Notes: generated by a model from the letters alone, not told the origin. A stretch of DNA of 64,000 nt from Clostridia bacterium (GCA_017508665.1 JAFVYL010000015.1:4421-68420); one strand, 5' to 3'. Counted from the stretch's first letter, positions 2,300 through 18,229 are shown. Translations and numbers: made by a program.

Positions 2300-2338
2300 G
2301 ACTGCCTCACTCCGAGATGGAGTGGGGCAGTCCCTTTT
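2300..2338. terminator. bidirectional intrinsic terminator between convergent genes
   Basis: 14-bp stem gactgcctcactcc / ggagtggggcagtc. It is followed by a T-run and preceded by an A-run. Confidence 0.7.
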
Positions 2339-2350
2339 GGTACTTAAAAA

Positions 2351-3403
2351 TTATTCAACGGATATCTTTATATCGCCTGTATCGGTTTCTATCTTACATT
2401 TGCCGCCCGACCAGCTTTCGGGAACGTTCACTTTTCCGGTGTCTGTACGTACCTGGAAGATTTTTTCTGAAAGGAAAGTGCCTGTAACGTCGCCCGTGTC
2501 GGTAGTAACGTAGATTTCCGCAGCGTCGCATCTATCAAAGCTCACGTCGCCTGTATCTCTTTTTATGGAGAACTGTCCGGATGCTATAACGTTAGACATG
2601 CTGATATCTCCCGTGTCACCGGTAGATGTGAGGTTTGCGCAGTTGATATCGGAGAGCAGGGATTTTCCTGTACTCACATTAACCTCGAGATTTCCTGCGC
2701 ACTCAGCGAGGCGTATCTCGTTGTTGCCGGTGCTTGTTACTGTCGAGAGATTTCCGCCGATCTTAGCGGTATTTACGTTTATGTGTCCTGTGCTTCTCTC
2801 AATATGAACGTTGCCGCTTGCCGTTACGTTATTTACTGAAATATCTCCTGTGCTCGCACTTGTCGTAAAGCTTGAACAAGTGATACCGTTGATGCAAGTA
2901 TCACCGGTGCTGAGCGTTAATCTGAAATCGGCGCAAGTAACGTCCTGTATATTTACATTACCGGTAGAGAGATCGATATTCACATTGTCGAATTTGTAGC
3001 CCGAGATGGAGATATCTCCGGTGTCCTCGCTGATGGAAAGTGAACCGTATTCTGCTTCGGGAAGATATAATGTGAGTGAGCTTGTATACCAGCCGAAGAT
3101 GCGCTCAAACCACTTTCTCGAGTCATTTATGTGTATTTTTAACGTCCCGTCCTCAACACTTGCTGTGTGAGTGATTTTCTTATTGCCATAGGTAACTAAT
3201 CTGCAGTTGCCGTCCTGAGAGGGGGCAAACGTAATATCGTATGTATCCGTTATTATGTCAATGTTACTAAAACCTTCTGTAATATCTGTAGATGTTTCCA
3301 CGCGCCTACCGCCAAAATGCCATCCGCCCGCGCATCCCGTCATAGTAAACATTAAACCGCCCATAAGTATAAGTGCACCCGCAATTGTAAACCATTTTTT
3401 CAT
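2351..3403 (-). CDS. DUF4097 (Toastrack-like beta-helix) lipoprotein
   Basis: Signal peptide plus lipobox MFTMTGC. About 12 rungs of an [ST]TG[DNK]-type repeat (DTGDISISG, STGNVNIQD, STGDISVNN, DTGDVTGTF ...). Confidence 0.8.
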   Translation of the reverse strand: MKKWFTIAGALILMGGLMFTMTGCAGGWHFGGRRVETSTDITEGFSNIDIITDTYDITFAPSQDGNCRLVTYGNKKITHTASVEDGTLKIHINDSRKWFERIFGWYTSSLTLYLPEAEYGSLSISEDTGDISISGYKFDNVNIDLSTGNVNIQDVTCADFRLTLSTGDTCINGITCSSFTTSASTGDISVNNVTASGNVHIERSTGHINVNTAKIGGNLSTVTSTGNNEIRLAECAGNLEVNVSTGKSLLSDINCANLTSTGDTGDISMSNVIASGQFSIKRDTGDVSFDRCDAAEIYVTTDTGDVTGTFLSEKIFQVRTDTGKVNVPESWSGGKCKIETDTGDIKISVE

Positions 3404-3413
3404 AATTTATCTC

Positions 3414-3755
3414 CTATCTCTCAAAAATGTTTTTTATTAGGACAAAGCTTTTTTTCGTGAGAATTGCCGAGCCCTTCGTAGAATATATAGAGCCAAAGAA
3501 CGACAGTATCGCAAGTCCTGCCAGCGCCATCGCGCCACCGATCAGACTAAGTCCTGTCAGGATATTACCGCTGAAGAGATTTAAAACTCCGATCAAAACA
3601 GCCGCCGGTGAGGATACCGCAAAAGAAATAAACACCGCCCACACCGATATGACCAAGCTCCAGAGCACTGCCGCAAGCGAGATCACTATGGCGAATAATG
3701 CGATAATTACAGGTAACCATACCGGTGATCCCAAAATAATTAAAAGGGTTTTCAT
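3414..3755 (-). CDS. small polytopic membrane protein, paralogous to the C-terminal TM module of the upstream DUF1700 protein
   Basis: 113 aa. LLIILGSPVWLPVIIALFAIV resembles IALLVIGSPVWFSILLTVFAV of ORF 3765-4232. AGGAG RBS present. Confidence 0.65.
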   Translation of the reverse strand: MKTLLIILGSPVWLPVIIALFAIVISLAAVLWSLVISVWAVFISFAVSSPAAVLIGVLNLFSGNILTGLSLIGGAMALAGLAILSFFGSIYSTKGSAILTKKSFVLIKNIFER

Positions 3756-3764
3756 ATAGTTCTC

Positions 3765-4232
3765 CTACCGTCCGAAAAGTTCTCCGATAGCAGTAGCGCA
3801 TTTTCTCGTGAGTATTATCGATAATTTAGCGAATTCGATGCATACGATCCACATGTATTTACCGATGAATCCCATAATAACAAACGGAATCGCTACTGCA
3901 AATACTGTAATTAATAACGACCACATTACCGCAAATACCGTTAGTAGAATAGAGAACCATACGGGAGATCCTATCACAAGTAAAGCAATCTGCCATGCAC
4001 TAACCGGCTTTTTTGTTCTTTTTTTCTTTAAACCTATGTTGGAGTCAGAGAGAATTTGATCTGCAATTTGCATAACATCTCCGACGTCGGCTACGGCTTC
4101 CTCCTCTGTGAGACCTTCTTCAATTTTATCATCGATTATTTCACTGTAAAAGCTGATTCGTTCGTTGATTTCCTTGCTCGGCAATTTGCATATTTGTCGC
4201 CTGAGCTTTGATAAAAACACCTTTTTGGTCAT
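3765..4232 (-). CDS. DUF1700-family membrane protein (PadR-associated)
   Basis: MTKKVFLSKLRRQICKLPSKEINERISFYSEIIDDKIEEGLTEEEAV is the typical DUF1700 N-terminus, followed by TM segments. ATG at 4232 lies 1 nt after the PadR stop, with a GGAGG RBS. Confidence 0.75.
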   Translation of the reverse strand: MTKKVFLSKLRRQICKLPSKEINERISFYSEIIDDKIEEGLTEEEAVADVGDVMQIADQILSDSNIGLKKKRTKKPVSAWQIALLVIGSPVWFSILLTVFAVMWSLLITVFAVAIPFVIMGFIGKYMWIVCIEFAKLSIILTRKCATAIGELFGR

Positions 4233-4233
4233 C

Positions 4234-4545
4234 TCACAGTCCTCCTTTCTCCACAAATCTGTATATCGACATTACCTCTTTCCACTCGGACTTGAAGTCC
4301 TCAATTCGTCCAAGTCCGGCTTTTGTAATGTGATAGTATTTTCTCAGTCGTCCGTCGTGCTCGATCGACCGTACAGTAAGCATTTTTCCAAGCTCCAGCC
4401 TCTTAAGAATAGTGTAGAGCGTAGACTCTGTCAGTACTACGTACGGCTGCAGATCCTTTATGATCTTATATCCGTACGACGGCTCATTCTTAATGGCGGT
4501 AAGCACACATACGTCGAGCAGACCTCGTTTAAGTTGAATATCCAT
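4234..4545 (-). CDS. PadR-family transcriptional regulator
   Basis: MDIQLKRGLLDVCVLTAIKNEPSYGYKIIKDL...TLYTILKRLELGKML...RKYYHITKAG is a winged-helix PadR signature. ATG at 4545 has an AAGGAGAGG RBS; the longer ORF to 4692 is unlikely. Confidence 0.85.
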   Translation of the reverse strand: MDIQLKRGLLDVCVLTAIKNEPSYGYKIIKDLQPYVVLTESTLYTILKRLELGKMLTVRSIEHDGRLRKYYHITKAGLGRIEDFKSEWKEVMSIYRFVEKGGL

Positions 4546-4569
4546 GCAATACCTCTCCTTACATAATAC

Positions 4570-4598
4570 ATCGTAACACGAAGTATGCCGTTTGTCAA
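4570..4598 (-). promoter_or_regulatory. promoter of the PadR operon (TTGACA-17-TACGAT)
   Basis: Minus strand has TTGACA at 4598-4593, a 17-nt spacer, and TACGAT at 4575-4570. Confidence 0.45.
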
Positions 4599-4737
4599 GA
4601 GGTTTTGGCAAAAAAAGTTGAGAAAATTGTGAGGGTAGTGAGAGCAGGGCGCTCATTTGTATATCGGCATATTCTATAAACTCTTTTGGCATATTTTAGC
4701 ATATTTTCACGAAAAATATTTTGCGCCCGTAATTCAA

Positions 4738-4812: not shown

Positions 4813-7743
4813 ATGAAAAAGATAGTCATATTCGTAACATTGATCCTTGCACTTTTAATGTGCATGGCATCTTGTAACAAAGAGCAAAATACGGATCCAA
4901 AACCTGAACACACCCACGTATTTGGAGAGTGGTCTATCACCGAAAACGCCACTTGTACTAAGGACGGTGTGAAGGTTCATTATTGCTCTTGCGGAGAAAA
5001 GCAGATCGACTCAATCCCTAAACTACCTCATAGCGTGGTGATTGACGAAGCAGTTGCTCCCACTTGTACCAAGACAGGTCTTACGGAAGGAAAACACTGT
5101 TCTGTATGTACCGAAATTTTTATAGAACAAAATATTGTTGGTGCACTTGGTCTTGGTCATGCGTATGATTCTGAAATAGACGCTATCTGCAATACTTGCA
5201 GTGATGAAAGAGACGTGGATCCTATACTCGTTTCTATTTCTCATAATGATCTTTTTGGTTATGTGAAAGGGATAGATGAATCGGATCAAAGCAAAGCCAT
5301 TGTTGTACTCTATAATTCCGTTAATTCTTACACAACTGGTGTAGGAGCAAACAATGAGTACTTTTTCAATGATATACAACTCGGAACTTATTACCTGAAG
5401 ATAGAGATTTCTGGTTATGAAATCCCCTCTCCTGTTAAAGTTAGCATTAATAAAACAGGTTTCGTTATTCAACACTTAGTTATAACCAAAGTAACTGATA
5501 CAGATTTCTATTATCAATGGAAAGCTGATGACACTTATTTCGGATATGAAGAATCCGCAACTGTGCCTAACGAAAAAACATTTACTTTCCTTGATGAAGT
5601 TGTTTTTGTAAACGATTCAAATGCAACAGATAATCTACAAAGAGATTACAAAATTATCCTTAGTAATGAGGAGTTGAATTGGAGTAGTGACTACGCTTCT
5701 AGAATGCTCGAACTAGTTGAGAGTATTTATGCATTTCCGAAATCACTGCCCTCTAAGTGGATATTGACTTCTGATGAAATAGATGATGATGTGGAAATAA
5801 CCTATAGTACAGATTCCACGGTTATTCGTATTTCAAAATCAGCATTTGAAAATGCTATTCCTCGAAAAGCAGAATATAACGGATTGAAGGGTACATATTT
5901 CTCAAACAGGCTTTATCACGCTCTTATTCGTTATGCGACAAAGGAAGGAACGGATATCAAGTATATAGACCGTATTTTGCAGCATGATTATGGTTGCTCC
6001 ATTATCGTAAGTGATTATGCGGCTCTGACAGCAAGCACTACAAACGAAACCAATGCATCATTTGAGATGTTTAAGCCTGAAGAATTATTGGCAATTCTTG
6101 AGATGTTTGCCGAAATGCCTAAGGGACTTCATCGTGTTGAAAATCTGGAGTATTTAGTTAGAAGAATTGATGGAACTCCACATCCATTGTATCCTTCAGC
6201 GGCGGCAGTTTCTTGGCCTACCGTAGAGCAAGGGTATATTGAATTTATGGATTCAGCATTCTTGGGCTCTGAGGTTGAAGATACTTTTAGACTTGTACTT
6301 CATGAAAAATCTCACTTCTTATGGGAACATGTTTTCTCTGAAGAACTCAAGGCAAAATGGATTGAAATCGGTGGTTGGTATCAGACCGACACTGATTCCG
6401 ACGGTTGGTCTACCACAAAAGAAACTGAATTTGTAACTGCATATTCACACGCCATAAATCCCAATGAAGATATGGCGGAATCCATTGCATACTACATCTT
6501 GATGCCTGATAAATTAGAATCACGTTCTCCCGCCAAGTATGCGTTCATTCGTGATTATATTATGAATGGTGAAATATACCTCACGCAAATTAGAGAAGAT
6601 CTCACTTTTGAGGTATATAATCTTTATCCTGATTACAATTATCCCGGTAAAATCGTTGGAGTTGAAATTCAAGTTTCAGGTGCTCCTGAAGAAGACAAAC
6701 GCGTAACAGTTACAATTACAATTGACACTAACGGTGATCCTTCATTTGGCGCAAAAAAAGCGATTATGCGTATAACTAGTGAAGAAGGTACTTTTTATGA
6801 TTTATGGGTTTACGCAATCGATGCTACTAATTCTGTCTTGCGAGGAACAGTAGTATTTAGCAAATACGCATGCAATGGATATTGGAGTAATGAAGAAATT
6901 GACTTGATGGATCCTGCTGGTAATCAACGATTCGTAGGATCTGATAATTTTGGCTGGAAACTTTATATTGATAATCCTTTGCCAGATTATGAGGCTCCGA
7001 AATATGTTGAAGATTCTGTTCAAGTTGAAATGGAAACAGGCGAGTTTAACGGCAGATCTGTTACGTATGTTTATGTGAAATTCAAGGCAACAGATAACAT
7101 TGGAATTAAATCAGTTTATTGTGCAATGGCAAATAATACTTATAATGGCTACAGATTGGAGGAGTATGGTGTGTATGACTCAACTACCAATGAGGCTGTT
7201 ATTACATTTATATTTACAGAATATATGCAATCTGGAGAATATTCTGTTAACTACATTATGTTAGAGGATTATGCCGAGAACTCATCAAGATTCTATTTTT
7301 ATTCAAATGGTAGCGGGGCGGGGTATCCCGCAACATTCGTATATCAAAGTGAAAACTCTGATTACGAAGCTCCTGCTTTGGATGTAAACAGAATTACGAT
7401 AACTGCAACACCTACCCACCCCGAAAATCCCAACGGCGAAACTGTTGTGCGCATTGAATACTATGTAAAAGATAACGCTTCTGGTCTTGGTTCGGTTAGT
7501 TACCGTTTATTAGATCCGTTAGGAAATACGCACTTTGAATATCATTATCATGAAAATTACTACACTGTTTATTTTAAAGGCGATCCTACCGCGTGGACTA
7601 AATACGAGATTAATGTTATTCTTCCTGAAGGATCTGCTCCCGGTAAATGGGGACTCTTAGAAATTTATGTAGAGGATAAAGCAGGTAACTTTACCACTTA
7701 TAACTTCTTGGAGATATTGCATTTCCAAGTAACAGGAAACTAA
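4813..7743 (+). CDS. large secreted lipoprotein with Cys-rich N-terminal repeats, an HExxH...E metallopeptidase-like core and Ig-like C-terminal modules
   Basis: Lipobox LMCMASC. Three H..C-T-K-x-G...C-x-x-C repeats. HEKSH at nt 6301-6315 and NPNEDMAESIAYY at about nt 6464-6486 (gluzincin third-ligand style, M34/ATLF-like). Confidence 0.7.
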   Translation: MKKIVIFVTLILALLMCMASCNKEQNTDPKPEHTHVFGEWSITENATCTKDGVKVHYCSCGEKQIDSIPKLPHSVVIDEAVAPTCTKTGLTEGKHCSVCTEIFIEQNIVGALGLGHAYDSEIDAICNTCSDERDVDPILVSISHNDLFGYVKGIDESDQSKAIVVLYNSVNSYTTGVGANNEYFFNDIQLGTYYLKIEISGYEIPSPVKVSINKTGFVIQHLVITKVTDTDFYYQWKADDTYFGYEESATVPNEKTFTFLDEVVFVNDSNATDNLQRDYKIILSNEELNWSSDYASRMLELVESIYAFPKSLPSKWILTSDEIDDDVEITYSTDSTVIRISKSAFENAIPRKAEYNGLKGTYFSNRLYHALIRYATKEGTDIKYIDRILQHDYGCSIIVSDYAALTASTTNETNASFEMFKPEELLAILEMFAEMPKGLHRVENLEYLVRRIDGTPHPLYPSAAAVSWPTVEQGYIEFMDSAFLGSEVEDTFRLVLHEKSHFLWEHVFSEELKAKWIEIGGWYQTDTDSDGWSTTKETEFVTAYSHAINPNEDMAESIAYYILMPDKLESRSPAKYAFIRDYIMNGEIYLTQIREDLTFEVYNLYPDYNYPGKIVGVEIQVSGAPEEDKRVTVTITIDTNGDPSFGAKKAIMRITSEEGTFYDLWVYAIDATNSVLRGTVVFSKYACNGYWSNEEIDLMDPAGNQRFVGSDNFGWKLYIDNPLPDYEAPKYVEDSVQVEMETGEFNGRSVTYVYVKFKATDNIGIKSVYCAMANNTYNGYRLEEYGVYDSTTNEAVITFIFTEYMQSGEYSVNYIMLEDYAENSSRFYFYSNGSGAGYPATFVYQSENSDYEAPALDVNRITITATPTHPENPNGETVVRIEYYVKDNASGLGSVSYRLLDPLGNTHFEYHYHENYYTVYFKGDPTAWTKYEINVILPEGSAPGKWGLLEIYVEDKAGNFTTYNFLEILHFQVTGN

Positions 7744-7767: not shown

Positions 7768-7800
7768 GAGCGCCCATTCGTGGGCGCTCCCTTTTTATTT
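7768..7800 (+). terminator. intrinsic terminator
   Basis: gagcgccca-ttcg-tgggcgctc followed by cctttttatttt. Confidence 0.8.
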
Positions 7801-7832: not shown

Positions 7833-7861
7833 TTGACAATTTACGATTTTTATGGTAAAAT
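7833..7861 (+). promoter_or_regulatory. promoter of the TerB-ATPase-helicase operon (TTGACA-17-TGgTAAAAT)
   Basis: TTGACA at 7833-7838, a 17-nt spacer, TG at 7853-7854, and TAAAAT at 7856-7861. Confidence 0.6.
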
Positions 7862-7910
7862 ACATATTTAAGGAAAAACTGTTTTTGAATATGTGGGAAA
7901 GGAGAGGGAA

Positions 7911-9569
7911 ATGATGTCTTTTGATGATAGAAACGAAGAAAAAGACGGCTTTTGGGATATTGAAAAGCTTATACCAAAGAAGAAAAATGCTTTGCTTTCC
8001 CCCTTTGCCACAAAGCCTGCAGTCAAGGACTATTCCGTCGACTTACCCGAGAGGGAAAGGCTTACGTCCGAGGATGCCTCGCTCAGAGCCGAGGAGCAGA
8101 AGCTGAGCTTTGAGCATCGGCGTGATGCTGAGCTTGGCGAGGAGCACGTATATTACCCCGAAAACACGCTGATAAAAAGCATAACGGTAAGAAAGTACAA
8201 GGAAAGCTACGATTTCTACGACAGCTTTCGCCGTGCGGCACTTTTGTATTTTGACTGTCCGGGTGAGAAGTGCGACTTCGCGCAATTCTACTCCTATATG
8301 CCGCAGTATTCACAGCTTACCAAAGCGCAGAAAAGCTACTATCTCTATTGGCGTCACGAGCTGAGACAGGGGCGATTTATCCGCACCGATTACTCGTATC
8401 TTTATCTGCTTGTATATGAGATAATAAATCTGCCCGACAGGATAGAGCCCGAAAAGGGTGTAAAGCTTCTTTGCCGCCTCTGGCGCGAATACCGTAAGGC
8501 ATTACCGAGAATAGATATGTACTTCTCAATGTGGGTGAGAGATTACTGTCTTGTACACGAGCTTGACGCGCCTGTTTCCGAGCTTCAGGATTTCATTTTT
8601 GACGTTATCCGATCATCCGACCTCAAGGAGTACTATTTTACAAGCATAGGAGAGCCCGGGCGCGAGGGTGTATGGTCATTGATAGCCTATCTCTCCGACT
8701 ACGATTGGCACAAGGGCTTTTCCACGATCGTAGGCAAGGAGAACTCCGAGGATTACACCAAGAGGGCTGATATATATAAGACCTTGCTCGAGGGATCGAT
8801 GCGAGTTATTCTCCCGTCTGTATGGCAGGAATGTATGCGTGAGAAGGAGGCAGGTAAGCTGTCTAAAATCTCCCGACAGGCATTTCCGAATACTCTTTGT
8901 ACACGTATGGTGAAGTCGAGGCTGGAGATAGAGTATTATCCTTTGGCGGATGCATCCGAGCTTCGAGCAGGTATTACAGCGGCCGTAAGATATACCGAGA
9001 ATAAGCTCAGAGCACTTTTTGGTGCAAAGAGCCGCCTCGCAATAAAATATATTCCAAAGGAATATAAAGAGCTGATTGATTGCTATTTTGACGAGCTTAT
9101 ACGCAAGAGCGAAGCACGTGTTAAGAAGCAGAATCTTCCCGAATATGAGAAGCTCTACGACGCCCCTAGAGAGAAGCTATCCTTCGCAGGAGCTGATGAG
9201 ATCGAGAGACTTTCCTGGGATACTACTATGCGTCTTTGCGAGACGGACGAGTATTCTGACGGTGTGGATTCCGTTATCGAATCGGAGACCGCAGCCGACG
9301 TTATACCTACGTCCGATGAAGTCTCCGCTTCGCAAAACAGTAAGAGTGATACCTACGGGCTCTCCGAGTCCGATATAAGATACCTTCGCGCGCTTTCCGA
9401 GTCCTCGGTGCGCGTTGGTCACAGTATAGATGAGGATGCGGCGGTCGAGCGTATCAACGAGGCGTTCAGCGACGGCTTCGGTGACGTTATAATTGAGGAT
9501 ACGGGAGACGGCTTTGCTATAATTGAGGACTATAAAGAGGAGATTTTGGAATGGCTGAAGAATTTATAG
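7911..9569 (+). CDS. sngA: TerB-N / TerB-C domain protein (Shango SngA-like)
   Basis: FAQFYSYMPQYSQLTKAQKSYYLYWRHELRQGRFIRTDYSYLYLLVYEIINL is a TerB-N-type block. The acidic C-terminus (INEAFSDGFGDVIIEDTGDGFAIIEDYKEEILEWL) is TerB-C-type. ATG at 7911 follows AAGGAGAGGG. Confidence 0.7.
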   Translation: MMSFDDRNEEKDGFWDIEKLIPKKKNALLSPFATKPAVKDYSVDLPERERLTSEDASLRAEEQKLSFEHRRDAELGEEHVYYPENTLIKSITVRKYKESYDFYDSFRRAALLYFDCPGEKCDFAQFYSYMPQYSQLTKAQKSYYLYWRHELRQGRFIRTDYSYLYLLVYEIINLPDRIEPEKGVKLLCRLWREYRKALPRIDMYFSMWVRDYCLVHELDAPVSELQDFIFDVIRSSDLKEYYFTSIGEPGREGVWSLIAYLSDYDWHKGFSTIVGKENSEDYTKRADIYKTLLEGSMRVILPSVWQECMREKEAGKLSKISRQAFPNTLCTRMVKSRLEIEYYPLADASELRAGITAAVRYTENKLRALFGAKSRLAIKYIPKEYKELIDCYFDELIRKSEARVKKQNLPEYEKLYDAPREKLSFAGADEIERLSWDTTMRLCETDEYSDGVDSVIESETAADVIPTSDEVSASQNSKSDTYGLSESDIRYLRALSESSVRVGHSIDEDAAVERINEAFSDGFGDVIIEDTGDGFAIIEDYKEEILEWLKNL

Positions 9570-10921
9570 AACCTAAAGTCCCGAAGAGAATATTAAACAC
9601 ACTCCTGTCGTCTTTGACTGCGGGCGTTGTTCCGCGAGTGGGCGCGCCGTATATAGCCATAGGCAGACGGGAGGAGATAGCATCGCTTCTTGACAACCTC
9701 GATGACGTGAGCGAGGGCGGTGCATTTTGCAGATTTTTGATAGGCAGATACGGTAGCGGTAAAAGCTTCCTTATACAGCTTATACGTGGATATGCGCTTG
9801 AGCGCGGATTTATCTGTGCCGATGCGGATCTTTCCCCCGAGCGCAGACTTTCGGGCGGTAACGGTGCGGGACTTGCCACCTATCGCGAGCTTATGACTAA
9901 TATTGCGAGCAAGGCATGTCCCGACGGCGGTGCGCTTGCTACCGTTCTTTCACGTCACTTTACCAAGCTCCGCACAGAGCTTATCGCAGAGGGGATAGAT
10001 CCCGAGAGCGAAGAGTTTGTAAAGGGCATCAGAAAAAAGGTTTTTGCGACTCTCTCCGAGCTTGAGGGAGATGTCGGCGGATTCGATTTTGCGCGTGTAC
10101 TTACAGAGTACTACAACGCCTCTCTCACTGATGACAATGACAAGAAGAGTAACTGCCTTCGCTGGCTCAGAGGTGAGTTTTCCACCAAGACCGAGGCAAA
10201 GTCCGCTCTCGGCTTTACCGTCAGCACTGTTATAGACGATGACAACTGGTACAACTTTATCAAGCTGTTTTCCTCCTTGTCGGTATATCTCGGCTATTCG
10301 GGACTTGTACTATTTATCGACGAGTGTGTAAACCTTTACAAAATACCAAACAGAATATCCCGAGAGGCAAACTACGAGAAGCTTCTCGCTATATTCAACG
10401 ATACACTTCAGGGCAAGGCGAAAAATCTCGGCATAATCTTCGGAGGTACGCCACAGTTCCTCGAGGATACACGCAGAGGTCTGTTCAGCTACGATGCTTT
10501 GAGAAGCCGTCTGCAGGACTCAAAGTATTCCGATATGGGCTACAAGAATCTCTCCTCGCCCGTAATCAGATTGCCGCGACTATCGGACAACGAGCTTTTG
10601 GCTCTTGTGAAAAGACTTACCAAGCTTTATCAGCAGAGAGAGGGCGCACCTGTCCCTCCTGCGACAGATGATGAGATCGAGCGTTTTCTTGCTAACGCGC
10701 TCGCAAAGGCAGGTGCTGAGGAGCTTATCACACCCCGTGAGATAATCAGAGATTACCTGACCTTGCTCAATATTTTAAGAGATAATCCGAGTGCAAAATT
10801 TGATGAGCTGATTGATAAGGTGACGGCACAGAACGTGAACACCCCCTTAGCCGACACAGCCTCGGTCAAAGCATCTACAAGTAGCACTAAAAAGGTAACA
10901 ATCTTCGATATTGATATTTAA
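9551..10921 (+). CDS. sngB: DUF2791/BrxD-like P-loop ATPase (Shango SngB-like)
   Basis: N-terminus LTAGVVPRVGAPYIAIGRREE, Walker A GRYGSGKS, Walker B LVLFIDEC. Overlaps the upstream gene by 19 nt. Confidence 0.7.
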   Translation: MAEEFIEPKVPKRILNTLLSSLTAGVVPRVGAPYIAIGRREEIASLLDNLDDVSEGGAFCRFLIGRYGSGKSFLIQLIRGYALERGFICADADLSPERRLSGGNGAGLATYRELMTNIASKACPDGGALATVLSRHFTKLRTELIAEGIDPESEEFVKGIRKKVFATLSELEGDVGGFDFARVLTEYYNASLTDDNDKKSNCLRWLRGEFSTKTEAKSALGFTVSTVIDDDNWYNFIKLFSSLSVYLGYSGLVLFIDECVNLYKIPNRISREANYEKLLAIFNDTLQGKAKNLGIIFGGTPQFLEDTRRGLFSYDALRSRLQDSKYSDMGYKNLSSPVIRLPRLSDNELLALVKRLTKLYQQREGAPVPPATDDEIERFLANALAKAGAEELITPREIIRDYLTLLNILRDNPSAKFDELIDKVTAQNVNTPLADTASVKASTSSTKKVTIFDIDI

Positions 10922-10935
10922 TATAGGGCAGAACA

Positions 10936-13170
10936 ATGACAGAAGCGGATAAAATATTTTCAAAATTCCCGGATTTTATCAAGGAATTTATATACAGAAA
11001 CAACTGGACACATCTTCGAGGCATACAGATAGATGCCGCAGACGTTATATTTAATACCGATTCTAATCTTCTTCTTTCCTCGTCCACCGCATCGGGTAAG
11101 ACCGAGGCGGCATTCTTCCCGATAATAACCGATATACTTAGCCACCCCGAGTGCGAGAGCAGTATATCCGTCCTTTATATAGCGCCTCTGAAATCCTTGA
11201 TCAACGATCAGTTTTCGAGACTTGACGAGTTGCTTGATATGACGGGTATCACAGTTACACATTGGCACGGTGACGTCGGTGCATCGCATAAGACAAAGCT
11301 TTTGAAGAATCCCGAGGGCATACTTCAGATCACCCCCGAGTCACTTGAGTCGATGCTTATGAATCGCCCGAATGATATACCGCGACTTTTCGGACAGCTT
11401 CGATTCGTTGTCATAGATGAGATACATTCGCTTATCGGTACGGACAGAGGAAATCAGGTTATATGCCATCTTTCGAGAATCGCGCGTCTTATCGGCCACA
11501 CTCCGCGCAGAGTCGGACTCAGCGCCACGATAGGAGATCTCGGACTTGCTGCCGAATGGCTCGGTGCGGGAAGCGATAGGGAAACTGTTGCCCCCATTCC
11601 CGAAAAAACTCCGCTCAAGTGGAGACTCGGGCTCGAGCATTTCTATATACAGAATCCCCACGAGGAGCAGTCGAGATCGACCGAGCGCGCATCAGCACCC
11701 GACGAGGATAAAGGCGGCAGAGCGCTGCTTGATCCCGGATATGAGTTCCTATATGATGCTCTCGAAGGTAAAAAAGCTCTCGTTTTCTCAAACTCCAGAG
11801 AGGAGACCGAGTACGTCACCGCTACTCTCAGACAGATCTGCAAGGCAAGAGGTGACAAGGACGTATTTCTTATCCACCACGGCAACCTTTCCGCATCTTT
11901 GCGCGAGGATGCCGAGCGCACTATGAAGGATGAATCGGTTTTACGTGCCGTAACCTGCGCGACCGTCACTCTTGAGCTCGGTATAGATATCGGAAGGCTC
12001 GACAGAGTGGCCCAGATGGGCTCTCCCACGACGGTCTCAGCATTCCTTCAGAGACTCGGTCGTTCCGGAAGAAGAGGCTCGCCTCCGGAGATGATAATGG
12101 TATACAGAGAGGAAACGCCTCTTCCGAATGCGCCTCTTCACGAGCTTATTCCGTGGGAGCTGCTTCGCGGCATAGGAATTATAGATCTCTATTCATCAGA
12201 GCGCTTTATTGAGCCTCCGAGAGTAAAGAAAATGCCTTTGAGTCTTGCGTTCCATCAGACGCTCAGTACCGTATTCTCCTCGGGAGAGCTTACTCCGAGA
12301 GCTCTTGCGGAGCGAGTGCTCACATTACCTCCGCTTACGCCTCTCGGCAAGGAGACCTACAGAGCGCTCCTCGTTTCTATGATTAACGACGAGTTTCTTG
12401 AGATCACCGAGACCGGCGGTATTATAGTGGGATTAAAGGGCGAGAGACTCTTGAACTCATTTAAATTCTACGCCGTCTTTAAGGACAGCGAGGATTATAC
12501 CGTCAGATGCGACGGAGAAGAAATAGGTACTATTACGACACCGCCGCCCGTAGGCGATAGATTTGCTCTTGCAGGCAGAGTATGGGAAGTTAAAGAAGTG
12601 GATCTTCCGTCAAGACTCATATTCGTAAAGGCTGTAGAGGGCAAGATGGAGATCTCCTGGCCGGGTGACAGCGGTGAAATACACACAAAGCTGCTTTTGG
12701 CTATGCGCGACGTACTTTTCAACGGCAAGGAATATCCCTTCCTCGGAGATAACGCGAGAGAACGCCTTGAAAAAGCGCGCAGAGTGGCTAAAAACGCGCG
12801 TATGGATGAGAATATGCTTGTATTTCTCGGCGGACAGAGCTACGTGTTGTTCCCGTGGCTTGGTACAAGATCATTCCGTACTATGAAAAGATTTTTGCAG
12901 AAATATTCGTCTGAGCTCGGAATATCCGACATTCAGAGCGAGGGATGCTGTTATATCACCTTTAAGGCAAAGCCGGATGTGGGAAAGAACCTGATGTTTG
13001 GAATACGCGCTATACTTGAGCGTGACGGACTCGATACATTCTCGCTTGTAAACGGCGGAGAATGTCCCGTGTTTGATAAGTTTGACGAGTACATTCCTCC
13101 CGAGCTTCTCCGCGATGCTTATGCCATAGACAGACTTCGCGCAGATGAAATTTTTGAGCGATTTGAATGA
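10936..13170 (+). CDS. sngC: SF2 DEAD/DEAH-box (Lhr-like) helicase (Shango SngC-like)
   Basis: Motif I TASGKTEAAF, motif II VIDEIH, motif III SAT, motif VI QRLGRSGRRG, plus HHGNLS. There is a long C-terminal extension. Confidence 0.75.
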   Translation: MTEADKIFSKFPDFIKEFIYRNNWTHLRGIQIDAADVIFNTDSNLLLSSSTASGKTEAAFFPIITDILSHPECESSISVLYIAPLKSLINDQFSRLDELLDMTGITVTHWHGDVGASHKTKLLKNPEGILQITPESLESMLMNRPNDIPRLFGQLRFVVIDEIHSLIGTDRGNQVICHLSRIARLIGHTPRRVGLSATIGDLGLAAEWLGAGSDRETVAPIPEKTPLKWRLGLEHFYIQNPHEEQSRSTERASAPDEDKGGRALLDPGYEFLYDALEGKKALVFSNSREETEYVTATLRQICKARGDKDVFLIHHGNLSASLREDAERTMKDESVLRAVTCATVTLELGIDIGRLDRVAQMGSPTTVSAFLQRLGRSGRRGSPPEMIMVYREETPLPNAPLHELIPWELLRGIGIIDLYSSERFIEPPRVKKMPLSLAFHQTLSTVFSSGELTPRALAERVLTLPPLTPLGKETYRALLVSMINDEFLEITETGGIIVGLKGERLLNSFKFYAVFKDSEDYTVRCDGEEIGTITTPPPVGDRFALAGRVWEVKEVDLPSRLIFVKAVEGKMEISWPGDSGEIHTKLLLAMRDVLFNGKEYPFLGDNARERLEKARRVAKNARMDENMLVFLGGQSYVLFPWLGTRSFRTMKRFLQKYSSELGISDIQSEGCCYITFKAKPDVGKNLMFGIRAILERDGLDTFSLVNGGECPVFDKFDEYIPPELLRDAYAIDRLRADEIFERFE

Positions 13171-13181
13171 AAGGAGCAGAG

Positions 13182-13943
13182 ATGATCTACGATCTTATTG
13201 CACCAATATACGATAAAGTGAACGGTGACGTTGACTATTCGGCGTGGGCGGACTTTATCGAGGAAGTTATAAAGAGAGAATATCAAAACGGCAAGCCCGA
13301 GCTTGTACTCGATCTCGGATGCGGCACGGGTAGAATGACCTTGGAGCTTGCAAAACGCGGTTATGATATGACCGGAGTGGATTACTCTGTGGAAATGCTC
13401 GATATCGCAAGAGAAAATGCCGAGCAGGCAGGACTTTCCGATAGAATGCTCTGGCTCTGTCAGGATATCACCGAGTTTGAGCTCTACGGCACGGTCGACG
13501 TTACCGTATCATGTCTTGATACCTTGAATCACCTTACTGAGCCCTCGGAGCTTTCTCGCTGTCTTTCTCTTGTCCACAACTACCTTGTCCCCGACGGACT
13601 GTTTATATTTGATGTAAACGGTAAATACAAGTTCGAGAAGCTGTACGGCAACGAGTCTTACGTCATCGAGGATGAGGGTAGCTTCTGCGTGTGGCAGAAC
13701 TATTACAACGAGAAAAGCCGTCTTTGTGACTTCTATATAACTCTTTTTGAAGAAACAAATGACGGACTTTATGAGAGATACGATGAGGAGCAGAGAGAAC
13801 GTATGTACACACTTCGCTCGTTGAAGAAGCTTCTCAAGGACAACGGATTTGAATTTATCGGCGCATATTCCAATTTTAATTTCGGTGAGGGTAGTGATGA
13901 TAACGAGAGAATCTACCTTGCCGCAAGATGTATAAAGAACTAA
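13182..13943 (+). CDS. class I SAM-dependent methyltransferase (small-molecule type)
   Basis: Motif I VLDLGCGTGRMT. No DPPY/NPPY-type or cytosine-C5 motifs. ATG at 13182 follows AAGGAG at 13171-13176. Confidence 0.8.
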   Translation: MIYDLIAPIYDKVNGDVDYSAWADFIEEVIKREYQNGKPELVLDLGCGTGRMTLELAKRGYDMTGVDYSVEMLDIARENAEQAGLSDRMLWLCQDITEFELYGTVDVTVSCLDTLNHLTEPSELSRCLSLVHNYLVPDGLFIFDVNGKYKFEKLYGNESYVIEDEGSFCVWQNYYNEKSRLCDFYITLFEETNDGLYERYDEEQRERMYTLRSLKKLLKDNGFEFIGAYSNFNFGEGSDDNERIYLAARCIKN

Positions 13944-13958
13944 ATTACGGAGATTGAT

Positions 13959-14843
13959 ATGAATACGAAATCAACTATTCTAAGAGGTATGACTCGCGAC
14001 GGCTCTGCGAGACTTGTAGTCATTAACTCGCGTGACATGGTCAACGGAATGAGAGAGGCGCATAAGACCTCTCCTACAGCAACCGCCGCGCTTGGCAGAA
14101 CTATTACCGCCGCTTCTATGATAGGTACGCTTCTTCCCGCTGACGGTGATACGGTTACCATTAGCTTTTCCGGAGACGGCGAGGCAGGCAAAATAATAGC
14201 TGTAGGAGATTATTTCGGTAACGTAAAGGGATATATTCAGAACCCCTTGGCAAATCCTCCGAAAAGACCTGACGGAAAGCTTGACGTTGGCGCTGCCATC
14301 GGTCGCGGTACGCTCTCGTTTGTCAAGGCTATAGGTGATAGCGAGCCTCAGACGGGAATGATTGAGCTGGTCAGCGGAGAGGTTGCTGAAGACATCGCGA
14401 CCTACTTTGCCATGAGTGAGCAGGTACCCACTCTCCTGTCCCTCGGAGTTCTTGTGGACAAGGATTATTCTTGTCTTGCGGCAGGCGGAGTCCTCATTCA
14501 GCTTCTGCCTTTCCCGGACGATTCGACAGTCGATCTTATCGAGAGAAACGCCGCATCACTCGGCAATATTTCCAAGTATTTCGAGATGGGACTTACTAAT
14601 GAGCAGATACTCGATATAGCTATGAAGGATATACCGTACGACCTCTTTGATAAGCTCGAGGTAGAGTATAAGTGCGACTGCTCTCACGATAGAATGAAGA
14701 AGAAAATTTTGAGTCTCGGAAAGTCTGAGGTAAAGACGCTTCTCGACGAGCAGGAGGCGGAGGGAAAACCTCGTGAGCTTACTGCTATATGTCGCTTCTG
14801 CAATAGCGAATACACCTACACAGAAAAGGAATTGATCGGTTAA
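13959..14843 (+). CDS. hslO: redox-regulated chaperone Hsp33
   Basis: 294 aa. The C-terminal zinc centre CDCSHDR ... CRFCNSEY is the typical Hsp33 CxC...CxxC. Confidence 0.9.
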   Translation: MNTKSTILRGMTRDGSARLVVINSRDMVNGMREAHKTSPTATAALGRTITAASMIGTLLPADGDTVTISFSGDGEAGKIIAVGDYFGNVKGYIQNPLANPPKRPDGKLDVGAAIGRGTLSFVKAIGDSEPQTGMIELVSGEVAEDIATYFAMSEQVPTLLSLGVLVDKDYSCLAAGGVLIQLLPFPDDSTVDLIERNAASLGNISKYFEMGLTNEQILDIAMKDIPYDLFDKLEVEYKCDCSHDRMKKKILSLGKSEVKTLLDEQEAEGKPRELTAICRFCNSEYTYTEKELIG

Positions 14844-14900
14844 TCTGCCGAGAAATAAATCGGAATATTTTAAAAACATACTGAATATAATCTTGTAAGA

Positions 14901-15449
14901 TTGTATGCAGGCGGTGGAATTTTGAACAGATTTTTATCCGAGGAAAATATAGCCTTACATCTTGAATACGTTAGAGATAAAAGGCTGAAATACTCCATTA
15001 TCGAGAGCTCCTTTCCAATGCTTTCAGGCAAGAGCGTACATGATGTTTTTCGTATGAAACTCAATCCTCGCGACAAGCTTGATGCGGTGAATCTGCTCTC
15101 TGAGATAAAGCTGCACGATATCTTCTTTTCTTCATTCGCAAAGACGCAGTATCCACGCTGCAGGGAGATTGAAGAAAAGTATGGTAGTGAGGCCGAATTT
15201 CTTAATTCGCTTTACAGGCTCGCCTCCTCACGTGCGCACGGATTCGCGTTAGTTTATCTTCACGGCACTCGGATAGAGATTGATGCTACGTCGGATTATC
15301 CCTCGGCGTTTCGCATCGGCCAGCCGGTCCTCGCGATAGATATTTGCGAGCACTCATACTTTATGGATTACGGATTTGATAAGGAACGGTATCTCATATC
15401 GATGCTTCCTTATCTCGATATTACAAAGCTTTCCGCCAACTCTGAGTAG
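14901..15449 (+). CDS. Fe/Mn superoxide dismutase-like protein (divergent)
   Basis: LAIDICEHSYFMDYGFDKERY aligns with the DVWEHAYYLDYQN block of Fe/Mn SODs. LHDIFFSSF aligns with the HSLFW block. Start codon uncertain. Confidence 0.5.
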   Translation: MYAGGGILNRFLSEENIALHLEYVRDKRLKYSIIESSFPMLSGKSVHDVFRMKLNPRDKLDAVNLLSEIKLHDIFFSSFAKTQYPRCREIEEKYGSEAEFLNSLYRLASSRAHGFALVYLHGTRIEIDATSDYPSAFRIGQPVLAIDICEHSYFMDYGFDKERYLISMLPYLDITKLSANSE

Positions 15450-15481
15450 AGCGGAAAACAACACAAACGGAGGTATAAAAA

Positions 15482-16714
15482 ATGCTCTTGCACGGAAATG
15501 CAGTGGTTGGTCAGTCGGGAGGTCCGACTGCGGCTATCAACGCGACGCTCTCAGGAGTTATAAGAGGCGCGCTCGATGCCAAGCAAAAGGGAATAATAGG
15601 AACTCTTTACGGTATGCGAAACGGTATTGAGGGATTTCTTAGCGAGGATCTTGTCGATCTTTTCAAGACCTTTGAGGACGTCTCCGATCTCGGTACTCTT
15701 GAGGCTACACCTGCGGCAGCGCTCGGCTCTTGCAGAAGAAAGCTCAAGTCACACGAGGATGATGCTCCTACATATGACAGAATACTCGAGATCCTCAAAA
15801 AGTATAATATCAGATACTTCTTCTATATCGGCGGCAACGATTCTATGGATACCGTTCTCAAGCTTTCGAGATATGCGGCATCTCACGATTATGAGCTTCG
15901 TGTAGTAGGTGTTCCTAAGACTATAGACAACGATCTTATGGCTACCGATCATACGCCCGGATTTGGCAGTGCCGCAAAGTTTGTGGCTACTACCGTCGCA
16001 GAGATCGTACGTGATATAAACGTATATACTATGGATGCTGTGACTATCGTTGAGATCATGGGCAGAGATGCGGGATGGCTTACCGCTTCTGCGGCACTCG
16101 CATCGCTTAACGGCGAGGGCCCCGACCTTGTATATCTTCCCGAGCGTGTCTTCGACGAAGAGAGATTTATAAACGACGTTAAAGACCGACTTAAAGATCA
16201 TCCCGCCATTCTTGTTGCGGTATCCGAGGGAGTCAGATTTGCTGACGGTGAATACGTTGGCGCAGGCACACAGTCCGGTGCTGTGGACGTATTTGGACAC
16301 AAATATCTTGCAGGAACGGGAAAGGTGCTCGAGAGCATAGTGAAAAACCGTATAGGTTGTAAGGTGCGCTCGATAGAGCTGAGCCTTACTCAGCGCTGCG
16401 CATCTCATATGGCATCGCTTACCGATATAAACGAGTCTGTTACCGTAGGTAAAGGTGCGGTTGAAGCTGCAATCAGCGGCAAAACAGGTGTTATGATGAC
16501 TATTGAAAGAGCAGTAGGTGAGGACTACGTAACCACCGTTAGATGCGCAGATATTGCAGGCATCGCCAATGCAATCAAGACAGTTCCCGATGAGTATATC
16601 AACGAAGACGGAAACGGTATTACCGAGGCGGGTATCGAATACTTAAAGCCTCTCATCATGGGCGAGCTTTCTCTCGAATATGTGAACGGACTCCCCAAAC
16701 ACTTTGTGATTTGA
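15482..16714 (+). CDS. pfp: 6-phosphofructokinase, predicted pyrophosphate-dependent
   Basis: GQSGGPTAAINA, IGGNDSMDT, VGVPKTIDNDL, MGRDAGWL. Asp and Lys occupy the two positions that are Gly in ATP-dependent PfkA. Confidence 0.85.
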   Translation: MLLHGNAVVGQSGGPTAAINATLSGVIRGALDAKQKGIIGTLYGMRNGIEGFLSEDLVDLFKTFEDVSDLGTLEATPAAALGSCRRKLKSHEDDAPTYDRILEILKKYNIRYFFYIGGNDSMDTVLKLSRYAASHDYELRVVGVPKTIDNDLMATDHTPGFGSAAKFVATTVAEIVRDINVYTMDAVTIVEIMGRDAGWLTASAALASLNGEGPDLVYLPERVFDEERFINDVKDRLKDHPAILVAVSEGVRFADGEYVGAGTQSGAVDVFGHKYLAGTGKVLESIVKNRIGCKVRSIELSLTQRCASHMASLTDINESVTVGKGAVEAAISGKTGVMMTIERAVGEDYVTTVRCADIAGIANAIKTVPDEYINEDGNGITEAGIEYLKPLIMGELSLEYVNGLPKHFVI

Positions 16715-16768: not shown

Positions 16769-16806
16769 CAACGGTCGGCAGATTTTTGCCGACCGTTGAA
16801 TTTTTG
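16769..16806 (+). terminator. intrinsic terminator after pfp
   Basis: caacggtcggca-gatttt-tgccgaccgttg followed by aatttttgg. Confidence 0.8.
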
Positions 16807-16865: not shown

Positions 16866-16894
16866 TTGACACTATTTTAACATTATGGTATAAT
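16866..16894 (+). promoter_or_regulatory. promoter (TTGACA-17-TGgTATAAT)
   Basis: TTGACA at 16866-16871, a 17-nt spacer, TG at 16886-16887, and TATAAT at 16889-16894. Confidence 0.6.
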
Positions 16895-16938: not shown

Positions 16939-17421
16939 ATGGGAAAAGAACTATTTTGCCTTGAATGCGGAGCAAGAATAGAAGAAAGGCTATTACCGAG
17001 TGAAAATCGACATTGCTATGTATGTGGCAAAAATTCGCTTTTGGTAGAAAATTTGTCAAATTGGGTAAGCGTTAAGAATAAGAATGGCGAAAAGGCATTT
17101 TTCTATATACAATATGCCCCAAGATGTATTCCAAACACATGGGTAGAACTTGGTACTAATAAGGATGGCTACAACAGATTAGTTTCACTCCTTATACGTG
17201 ATCCGGAGGTAACAGTCATAAGAAATGATAAGAGCTGTGAAGAATTTGAATATATGCGAGATGGATATGGCTTTCACATTTCGTATATACCTTATGTAAG
17301 CGATTTGGTAGATCCTTGGTGGGATGGTGAACCATTTATTGAATTCACTTTCGTAAAAAAAGACAATCCAGCATTTCCTATATATTGGGACGAACTACAA
17401 AAACTCTATTTATTGTTGTGA
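16939..17421 (+). CDS. hypothetical protein with an N-terminal CxxC...CxxC zinc ribbon
   Basis: 160 aa beginning CLECGARIEERLLPSENRHCYVCG. It has its own consensus promoter, a GGAG RBS and a terminator. I recognise no family. Confidence 0.6.
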   Translation: MGKELFCLECGARIEERLLPSENRHCYVCGKNSLLVENLSNWVSVKNKNGEKAFFYIQYAPRCIPNTWVELGTNKDGYNRLVSLLIRDPEVTVIRNDKSCEEFEYMRDGYGFHISYIPYVSDLVDPWWDGEPFIEFTFVKKDNPAFPIYWDELQKLYLLL

Positions 17422-17814: not shown

Positions 17815-17835
17815 CTAACACGCAAATTAAATAGT

Positions 17836-17918
17836 GCTTATCAAGAGTGGTGGAGGGACCGGCCCTGTGAAACCCGGCAACCTGTTTTATACAAGGTGCT
17901 AATTCCTGACAGATGAGT
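17836..17918 (+). promoter_or_regulatory. SAM-I (S-box) riboswitch aptamer
   Basis: cttatcaagagtggtggagggaccggccctgtgaaacccggcaacc...aaggtgctaattcctgacagatgag matches the S-box core (P1 cttatc/gatgag, GGUGGAGGGA, CCCGGCAACC, GGUGCUAA). It lies upstream of metK. Confidence 0.9.
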
Positions 17919-18229
17919 TTGTTCTCACTTTGAGGGTAGCTCAACTTCAAAAAAGCTGAGCTACCCTCGAATGCTGTAAGGGGATAGGGGGATTTGGAAC
18001 GGAAATTTGCGTTATCCCTACCGTGAGGCGTACAAAATGTACGTCGAGGGAGGGAAACGCGAATAGAAAATGACTTTAATTTCACGGAGAAATTTACAAA
18101 ATTTCAACCTTATAATGCGTATTCTTAGCTCATTTTCGGATATAGAACGTTTTTGACGTTTTTTTAGTCATTTTCAGTTACGCCCCAATGCTCCAGCCCC
18201 TTTTGTTGATAAGCAGAAAGGACGATTAA

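Follow-up and report, generated by a model that had tools for sequence, protein, structure and literature searches.

A Shango-type SngABC operon with a probable vertical history among the housekeeping genes of a Clostridia bacterium

Why does a gene trio of a kind known from phage defence hold a place among the housekeeping genes of a Clostridia chromosome? The question is raised by a 64,000-nucleotide (nt) stretch of Clostridia bacterium DNA (GCA_017508665.1 JAFVYL010000015.1:4421-68420; hereafter the window), in which three co-directional open reading frames (ORFs) of the plus strand lie at 7893/7911..9569, 9551..10921 and 10936..13170. Comparison of their sequences leads us to conclude, with high confidence, that i) the trio is a complete Shango (SngABC) system of a short-SngA subtype, ii) it entered a large clade of ruminant and gut Clostridia (Oscillospiraceae/Ruminococcus-like metagenome-assembled genomes, MAGs) a single time, at the base of that clade, by insertion between an ispE-like GHMP kinase gene and a methyltransferase-hslO-pfk operon, and has since passed on vertically, and iii) it is under purifying selection as strong as that on its housekeeping neighbours, with a few clean losses. 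Identity, vertical history and the mechanism considered below, taken together as one best explanation, seem to us quite probable. The Shango family itself is already catalogued, with validated systems in E. coli and P. aeruginosa; what is new is the genomic context of this copy.

An initial annotation of the window had proposed Shango from the arrangement and motifs of the three genes. The peptide motifs that it quoted (FYSYMPQYSQL..., GRYGSGKS, LFIDEC, ASGKTEAAF, DEIH, SAT and QRLGRSGRRG) were all located, and the 19-nt overlap of genes 1 and 2 (9551-9569) and the 14-nt gap between genes 2 and 3 (10922-10935) are exact, a spacing that suggests coupled translation. The Shango gene content was recovered as well, the PADLOC SngA, SngB and SngC models being the top matches over nearly their full profiles. 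That annotation had made its reading depend on TerB_N/TerB_C matches in gene 1, a DUF2791 match in gene 2 and co-occurrence of the three genes in other genomes; all three were checked and all were found. The genes stand adjacent in one operon, and the order A-B-C is kept in every full-length orthologous locus and on plasmids: the trio recurs in this order in 34 related species, on plasmids of C. estertheticum and Phaeobacter, and in E. coli. SngA carries TerB_N and TerB_C, the Walker A and B motifs of SngB are intact, and SngC is of the SngC/BrxHI type. Patchy accessory spread on mobile genetic elements (MGEs) or in defence islands, which is typical Shango behaviour and not a formal criterion, is not seen for this copy. 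Phage resistance by Shango has been shown only with the systems of E. coli and of P. aeruginosa PA14 (10.1101/2022.05.11.491447; PMC10250203), and, going by what Millman et al. and Johnson et al. cite in those papers, TerB-ATPase-helicase triads had been predicted earlier. The validated systems, of E. coli (Millman et al. 2022) and of cDHS1 in P. aeruginosa PA14 (Johnson et al. 2023, PMC10250203), consist of the same three families in the same order; they are found at a variable defence hotspot, on conjugative plasmids or within islands bordered by IS elements, whereas the present copy has a fixed, vertically inherited site inside a housekeeping operon.

How firmly can the two motor proteins be assigned to Shango? 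The 456-amino-acid product of sngB (9551..10921) is an ATPase of the BrxC/BrxD family (ORC/Cdc6-like AAA+), and the DUF2791/BrxD likeness noticed at its N-terminus extends over almost the whole of PF10923 (BrxC_BrxD, formerly DUF2791; 2.7e-147, 491.5 bits, positions 1-412 of 414); the PADLOC SngB model matches it at 1.3e-161 (536.6 bits). Walker A (GRYGSGKS, nt 9743-9766, residues G65-S72 with K71), Walker B (LFIDEC, nt 10310-10327, with D257 and E258; IDEC in the alignment) and an RRG..SY.AL.SRL block show no variation, not even in comparison with plasmid outgroups that are 38-45% identical; the SngB of an E. coli plasmid is 39% identical. A sequence search of the PDB with SngB returned no match. 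In the same way, the DEIH-box superfamily 2 (SF2) helicase expected in gene 3 is borne out by Pfam DEAD (2.9e-27) and Helicase_C (1.6e-15). sngC (10936..13170) encodes an Lhr-like SF2 helicase of 744 amino acids in which motif I (ASGKTEA) spans nt 11089-11109, motif II (DEIH) nt 11416-11427 and motif VI (QRLGRSGRRG) nt 12049-12078, and the PADLOC SngC model covers it from profile position 5 to 712 of 720 (4.4e-232, 770.8 bits). Motifs I, II (DEIH), III and VI are invariant, as is much of the C-terminal 350 residues; the conserved C-terminal region (400-744) is without a Pfam match, and a search of residues 395-744 at E up to 5 gave none either, DUF1998 included.

The closest solved relatives of SngC by sequence are MrfA and Lhr. 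A low-confidence model of SngC, which we used for its top Foldseek match alone, aligned best and over its whole length with Lhr-Core of M. smegmatis (5v9x, 9.4e-23), MrfA/YprA of B. subtilis (6znp) coming next. These proteins have the SF2 motifs in common with SngC, but identity over the structural alignment is about 15-19%, SngC is encoded in an operon with SngA and SngB, and the Lhr-type equivalog models score far under their cut-offs (TIGR04121, 206 against 850; PRK09751, 105 against 1496; TIGR03817, 125 against 874). In a published helicase phylogeny SngC falls with BrxHI, DruE and DpdJ in a clade of defence helicases (PMC12278908).

The kinship of SngB and SngC with BrxD and BrxHI, which the initial annotation had pointed out, is real (PADLOC BrxD, 7.3e-44, 149 bits; PADLOC BrxHI, 2.4e-119, 398 bits). 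In type 2 (Pgl) and type 6 BREX a homologous ATPase and helicase pair is likewise tightly linked; for the type 2 dyad, BrxD has been described as a stand-alone ORC/Cdc6 AAA+ ATPase that is proposed to load or activate its partner, and BrxHI as an SF2 helicase with a winged helix-turn-helix, a beta-barrel and an Lhr-like C-terminal domain (PMC12839542). Together with the Pfam BrxC_BrxD match, this would allow genes 2 and 3 to be taken for an orphan BrxD-BrxHI remnant of type 2/6 BREX that merely resembles Shango. However, the Shango models outscore the BREX ones for both proteins (537 against 149 bits for SngB, 771 against 398 bits for SngC), the NCBIfam BrxD equivalog gives gene 2 152 bits with a cut-off of 350, and the scanned ORFs of 150 amino acids or more (most of those listed for the 64-kb window) included no pglZ, brxC/pglY, pglX or pglW. 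Where BREX would have these genes and a methyltransferase-based self/non-self module, this locus has a TerB_N/TerB_C partner, joined to the operon by the 19-nt overlap in every orthologue. On the model scores, the equivalog cut-off and the lack of BREX core genes in the scanned ORFs we reject the BREX reading, to which we give hardly any credence; judged by the same profile scores, the gene 2 and 3 proteins are related to BREX and Lhr components but do not belong to those families.

Part of what distinguishes this Shango from those already validated is its first gene. The start of sngA (7911..9569) is most likely ATG 7911, giving 552 amino acids, and not GTG 7893, because an AGGAG ribosome-binding site at 7900-7904 stands six nt upstream of the former. 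The TerB_N-type block and TerB_C-type tail that had been noticed in its sequence were both recovered by Pfam, at about nt 8217-8582 (TerB_N, 1.8e-15, 57.7 bits, cut-off 25) and about nt 9282-9545 (TerB_C, 6.3e-11, 43.1 bits, cut-off 26.3), the latter preceded by an acidic disordered linker, and PADLOC SngA matches the protein at profile positions 67-527 of 528 (9.8e-48). At E up to 5, Pfam gave no match in the middle of SngA and a sub-threshold DUF6481 match only at its N-terminus, and a PDB sequence search gave none. The AlphaFold 2 model (predicted local distance difference test score, pLDDT, 78.8 overall and about 90 in ordered parts) is confident for residues 75-410 and 485-552; Foldseek matched it to no solved structure below E=1, so that no function can be read from the fold. 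SngA is also the divergent subunit of the trio: it evolves two- to threefold faster than the other two proteins, identity is 40-71% within the clade and about 20% to plasmid SngA, and BLASTP against the larger fragment of an E. coli SngA, its C-terminal two-thirds, produced no alignment. The whole SngA family comprises about 2155 clusters at 50% identity (E<=1e-3).

Within this fast-evolving protein one short element has been kept. Roughly 10 residues from the N-terminus, at nt 7941-7985, lies the conserved motif KDGFWDIEKLIPKKK, with the pattern D-D-F-W-D-[ILV]-x-K-L-[VI]-P-K-K-K (DFWD..LxPKKK); its divergence (0.39) is the same as that of the folded core, in contrast to 0.76 for the disordered stretch around it. 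The motif core was found in 131 of the 149 representatives of 50%-identity clusters in the short-SngA subfamily, and a transmembrane (TM) segment in none of the 149. Likewise, gene 1 SngA has no TM segment (maximum KD19 0.74) and no Pfam match to the TerB domain PF05099, whereas Phaeobacter SngA has a TM region followed by TerB_N, TerB and TerB_C, and E. coli SngA has an N-terminal TM helix and then RKKKRK, where the present protein carries the aromatic-polybasic motif instead. The SngA of validated Shango, with its TM helix and central TerB, differs from this short form, which is predicted to be soluble and has DFWD..PKKK at its N-terminus.

This difference bears on the membrane surveillance that Millman et al. 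suggested for the TerB-containing systems Bunzi and Shango (10.1101/2022.05.11.491447). In an abortive Shango of such a kind, SngA would sense envelope perturbation by phage, and SngB and SngC would then hit host and phage DNA alike, leading to dormancy or death. Proteobacterial SngA, with a TM helix and a true TerB domain, suits such surveillance of the membrane, and the aromatic-polybasic motif found here could bind membranes peripherally. Nevertheless, the lack of a TM segment and of PF05099 in gene 1 SngA speaks against it, as does the fact that no toxic effector domain was detected in the trio, and for this copy we regard an abortive, membrane-sensing Shango as having a slim chance of being correct. 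Bunzi (BnzA) and Dionysus (DinB) also place Ter-family domains in a phage-defence operon, with a sensing or membrane role proposed for them; they pair TerB with membrane or pore-forming effectors, whereas here a novel helical core lies between TerB_N and TerB_C alone, and DNA motors serve as the partners.

Is this copy a recent arrival in its chromosome? The window is core chromosome, with the dcw cluster, ispDF, ruvB, xseA, recN and dnaE, and the description of a Shango copy among housekeeping genes was right as to the setting; a recent insertion it is not, the comparison pointing to an old, vertically inherited, core-like operon. A search with the downstream methyltransferase through GTDB, each species being represented by one genome, gave 57 loci from ruminant and gut Clostridia MAGs (cited below, where needed, by our locus numbers). 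Among 40 related species representatives, 34 carry the trio in the same slot, in the order GHMP (ispE-like) kinase with or without EamA, sngABC, and methyltransferase-hslO-(Sod-like)-pfk-metK-recD2. The six species of the clade without it have the kinase (or EamA) joined to the methyltransferase, directly in five and with two MATE genes between them in L051. In that Shango-minus species the slot is filled by two tandem MATE efflux genes (L051 4955..7724). More distant relatives keep the methyltransferase-Hsp33 pair and lack Shango there. In a neighbour-joining tree of methyltransferase, Hsp33 and PFK the Shango-plus clade is monophyletic and the outgroups are without the trio, while the Shango-minus loci L017, L022, L039/L040 and L051 are nested inside it in four or more places; the simplest history read from this tree is one gain followed by several clean losses, at least four.

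Further afield, the sngABC-methyltransferase-hslO block is present in the deeper relatives L065, L066 and L069 (SngB and SngC 65% identical in L066), and in two more diverged lineages the trio lies in chromosomal, non-mobile contexts. In L066 a Trp-repressor-family gene (10757..11032) stands between sngC and the methyltransferase, and in two diverged, rearranged lineages a small rubredoxin gene adjoins sngABC, after sngC in L067 (13515..13673) and before sngA in L068 (7663..7842). The upstream inserts seen in the clade encode BspA-type leucine-rich-repeat (LRR) surface proteins, ThrRS, an ABC transporter and PFL, with no integrase, transposase or defence gene among them. A search for att-like or terminal repeats flanking the trio found short matches at chance level only, the 64-kb window contains no tRNA gene as an integration site, and the GC content of the trio is like that of its neighbours. 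Cross-species synteny of Shango in Clostridia is not reported in the literature searched. A core-like Shango is not unheard of, because the HRGM2 preprint reports the system in core genomes of gut Actinobacteriota (10.1101/2024.12.11.627901).

The rates at which these proteins change agree with such a history. Mean pairwise divergence among Shango-plus species is 0.23 for SngC and 0.26 for SngB, so that both have changed less than Hsp33, PFK, RecD2, the methyltransferase and the kinase, with MetK alone more conserved; in matched pairs, divergence relative to SngB/SngC is about 1.0-1.2x for Hsp33, about 1.2-1.4x for PFK and about 1.5-1.7x for RecD2. Over 465 species pairs SngB/SngC distances track housekeeping distances (r=0.81), and the ratio of the two ranges from 0.47 to 1.31, with a median of 0.79 and no outlier pointing to recent transfer. 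The ratio of nonsynonymous to synonymous substitution rates (dN/dS), given here as rough values in view of saturated dS, is 0.044 for SngB, 0.035 for SngC, 0.034 for Hsp33, 0.053 for PFK and about 0.12 for SngA. Could the trio nevertheless be a decaying passenger, kept because its promoter drives essential downstream genes? Such transcriptional entanglement would fit the lack of a terminator between sngC and methyltransferase-hslO-pfk, as well as the Shango-minus species, where these latter genes directly follow the GHMP kinase gene. A passenger should, however, show frameshifts, as sngA does on an E. coli plasmid, whereas in the full-length loci examined here none of the three ORFs is disrupted, the catalytic motifs are invariant and dN/dS is about 0.04. 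Purifying selection on the protein sequences contradicts this explanation, and we reject it as having next to no probability.

From where is the trio transcribed? The initial annotation had placed it behind one consensus promoter and a strong terminator. Both are found: the putative intrinsic terminator at 7768..7799 (plus strand) consists of a hairpin (7768..7789) with a stem of 9 pairs, 7 of them G-C, and a 4-nt loop, then a T-run, and the sigma-70-type promoter at 7833..7861 (plus strand) reads TTGACA-17-TG-n-TAAAAT, an 11/12 match with an extended -10. The terminator, which ends the upstream 976-amino-acid gene, insulates the predicted Shango promoter. A scan of the region gave 8 promoter-like sites with 7.2 expected from shuffles, which is no excess; what makes us take the site at 7833..7861 to be real is not its scan score but its retention in 31 of 32 orthologous loci. 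In these loci TTGACA-17-TG-TA[AT]AAT is kept and the spacer ACG is conserved too, in DNA that is otherwise not conserved across loci and behind an upstream gene that varies between species.

The same annotation had let the unit end with gene 3 at 13170, and this part did not stand. The stop codon of sngC (13168-13170) is followed by AAGGAG and then by the methyltransferase ATG at 13182, 11 nt past the stop, and in the tabulated orthologous loci the spacing between the two genes varies from -4 to +30 nt. No plus-strand terminator is predicted between 13170 and 16769; the first strong one downstream of the Shango promoter, a stem of 13 base pairs with 8 G-C pairs, lies after pfk at 16769..16798 (plus strand), where the transcription unit is predicted to have its 3' end. 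Because no plus-strand terminator precedes this one, we predict a transcript of seven genes, hslO and pfk among them, with sngABC as its 5', promoter-proximal part. The trio would in this way bring its own near-consensus constitutive promoter, with predicted read-through into the downstream housekeeping genes.

The history of the same family in other lineages is a different one. SngB of this family occurs on 696 PLSDB plasmid records, 542 of them conjugative, and enterobacterial Shango is found in 701 of 5426 complete E. coli genomes. On the C. estertheticum plasmid, in A-B-C order, it lies beside a relaxase and IS110, and on the Phaeobacter plasmid, again in A-B-C order, beside AbiEi. On E. 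coli plasmid pRHB31-C15_2 (L064 2321..4651) sngA is split in two ORFs (2321-3031 and 3086-4651); the locus, bordered by IS3 and IS66 elements, looks like a decaying mobile copy, unlike the intact vertical ones. Directly 3' of sngC, the C. estertheticum plasmid encodes a UvrA-like double ABC ATPase (L062 10578..13124), and the Phaeobacter plasmid an AddB-like PD-(D/E)XK nuclease and a UvrD helicase (L063 9488..13203); these DNA-repair-like genes may be accessory effectors or separate systems. No phage-borne copy was found in 50,697 GenBank phages, and IMG/VR held no close relative.

Has the clostridial trio, then, become a housekeeping module? If SngABC were a domesticated genome-maintenance or DNA-repair complex, made up of an Lhr/MrfA-like helicase, an ORC-like loader and a TerB_N/C adaptor and no longer devoted chiefly, if it ever was, to phage defence, this would explain its core status, its constitutive expression and its co-transcription with stress and central-metabolism genes. 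SngB and SngC are indeed conserved as well as or better than Hsp33, PFK and RecD2, 34 of 40 species have the trio at this fixed locus without MGE or defence neighbours, and its consensus promoter is conserved; DNA repair is the role generally ascribed to Lhr and MrfA, the closest helicases of solved structure. The absence of phage-borne copies and of a close relative in IMG/VR, and the presence of Shango in the core genomes of gut Actinobacteriota, point the same way. Yet the trio is dispensable, having been cleanly deleted at least four times independently and replaced once by MATE genes, its family rides conjugative plasmids and is patchy in E. coli, and homologous systems block phages (PMC10250203; 10.1101/2022.05.11.491447). 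Moreover, the two- to threefold faster change of SngA relative to SngB and SngC is what one expects of a conflict interface. We consider this reading unlikely; were it true, the ancestral or a parallel role of the Shango family would be DNA maintenance, with phage defence as one outcome.

How might a vertically inherited Shango act on phages? In the literature searched, no mechanism has been reported for Shango. Selection acts on the ATPase and helicase sites, which are intact, and the three proteins are predicted to be soluble. We propose that SngA, SngB and SngC are translationally coupled and would form one cytosolic complex, in which SngA might be the sensor, scaffold or localiser, possibly through peripheral membrane or partner binding of its aromatic-polybasic motif, which would stand in for the TM anchor of proteobacterial SngA. 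SngB, as an ORC/Cdc6-type AAA+ protein homologous to BrxD, would spend ATP to load or license SngC. Lhr and MrfA are 3'-5' helicases, and by analogy the Lhr-like SngC is presumed to be one as well. It would translocate on phage DNA ends or replication intermediates and block circularisation or replication, the interference arising from motor activity or from recruited host nucleases; any degradation would be left to host enzymes, because the operon encodes no nuclease. As a whole this scheme is tentative, and we would give it rather less than an even chance.

Helicase-centred systems such as Druantia, Dpd and Hachiman may serve as a working analogy for a helicase that is sensor or effector on phage DNA. 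DruE of Druantia and DpdJ of Dpd belong to the same defence SF2 clade as SngC (PMC12278908), in agreement with PADLOC cross-matches, and DruH-DruE is reported to block phage DNA circularisation (PMC13316683). Hachiman (HamB) has a dedicated nuclease, HamA, and Druantia and Dpd have other partners, whereas Shango is without a recognisable nuclease. Johnson et al. observed that cultures were protected across a wide span of phage doses (PMC10250203), which fits direct rather than abortive defence.

Several points weigh against an intact, vertically inherited defence system acting in this way. A fixed, non-mobile context embedded in housekeeping genes is atypical of defence and leaves room for a non-defence role, and the relatives of this copy, whose phage-defence role is predicted from sequence, are all uncultured MAGs. 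The conservation of the promoter could serve the downstream pfk and hslO rather than Shango, and co-transcription with the downstream genes is argued solely from the absence of a predicted terminator. Since dS is saturated (0.9-4.8), the dN/dS values are indicative only. The AlphaFold model of SngC is weak (pLDDT 63.5) because the homologue-search matches listed, at least 120, are all at least 78% identical, and the Lhr-like nature of the C-terminal half is drawn from one Foldseek alignment and the PADLOC BrxHI match. Finally, domain searches of SngA, SngB and SngC found no nuclease or toxin effector domain, and helicase polarity, the formation of a complex and SngB as a loader are drawn from analogy only.

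What can be gained from a Shango copy with this history? Dozens of orthologous, co-diverging sets of SngA, SngB and SngC make up a natural data set for co-evolution analysis and interface prediction, in which both motors, the SngA core and the short N-terminal motif are the constrained parts and the SngA linkers the free ones. The minimal SngA, predicted to be fully soluble, is attractive for biochemistry and cryo-electron microscopy. In addition, a "defence" system that behaves like a core gene, with a fixed locus, housekeeping-level conservation, predicted read-through into pfk and hslO and occasional clean loss, is relevant to the extent to which defence systems may become domesticated, and it calls for caution in surveys of gut MAGs, where a DefenseFinder or PADLOC match need not always mean mobile immunity. 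Rumen surveys list Shango among the systems identified by DefenseFinder; vertical inheritance in abundant Clostridia could account for part of these matches.

Downstream of sngC, the housekeeping block predicted to be co-transcribed with it (13182..16714, plus strand, genes assigned by Pfam) is made up of an S-adenosylmethionine (SAM) methyltransferase (13182-13943, its ATG behind AAGGAG), hslO/Hsp33 (13959-14843), a Sod_Fe_C-like gene (14901-15449) and pfk (15482-16714), none of them a Shango component. The methyltransferase had been considered as a fourth Shango or modification gene on account of an apparent 4-nt overlap with sngC and a PADLOC mad2 match (1.9e-21); it was rejected, its true start being 13182 and the methyltransferase-Hsp33 pair being kept in Shango-less species and outgroups. 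The mad2 match of the ORF at 13167..13943 (plus strand) reflects a generic SAM-methyltransferase domain, from which automated tools could over-call a defence gene.

Upstream, a lipoprotein-like ORF of 976 amino acids (4813..7743, plus strand) directly precedes the Shango promoter. Its GC content is 0.36-0.38, compared with 0.45-0.50 around it, its sole Pfam match is a sub-threshold Peptidase_Mx, and it is missing in L005-L008, the closest sister species; it has the look of a recent insertion, in a slot that holds BspA-type LRR surface proteins in other species. Between EamA and this gene lies a three-gene PadR-HAAS-DUF4097 ("toastrack") module (2351..4692, minus strand), which is present in L008, rearranged and adjoining Shango in L067, and missing from most species. 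On the other side, just past the pfk terminator, a perfect 12/12 promoter (TTGACA-17-TATAAT with a TG extension, 16866..16894, plus strand) is followed downstream by an ORF of 160 amino acids (16939..17421, plus strand) without a Pfam match, and a SAM riboswitch (RF00162, 72 bits; 17835..17919, plus strand) lies upstream of metK (18230..19414).

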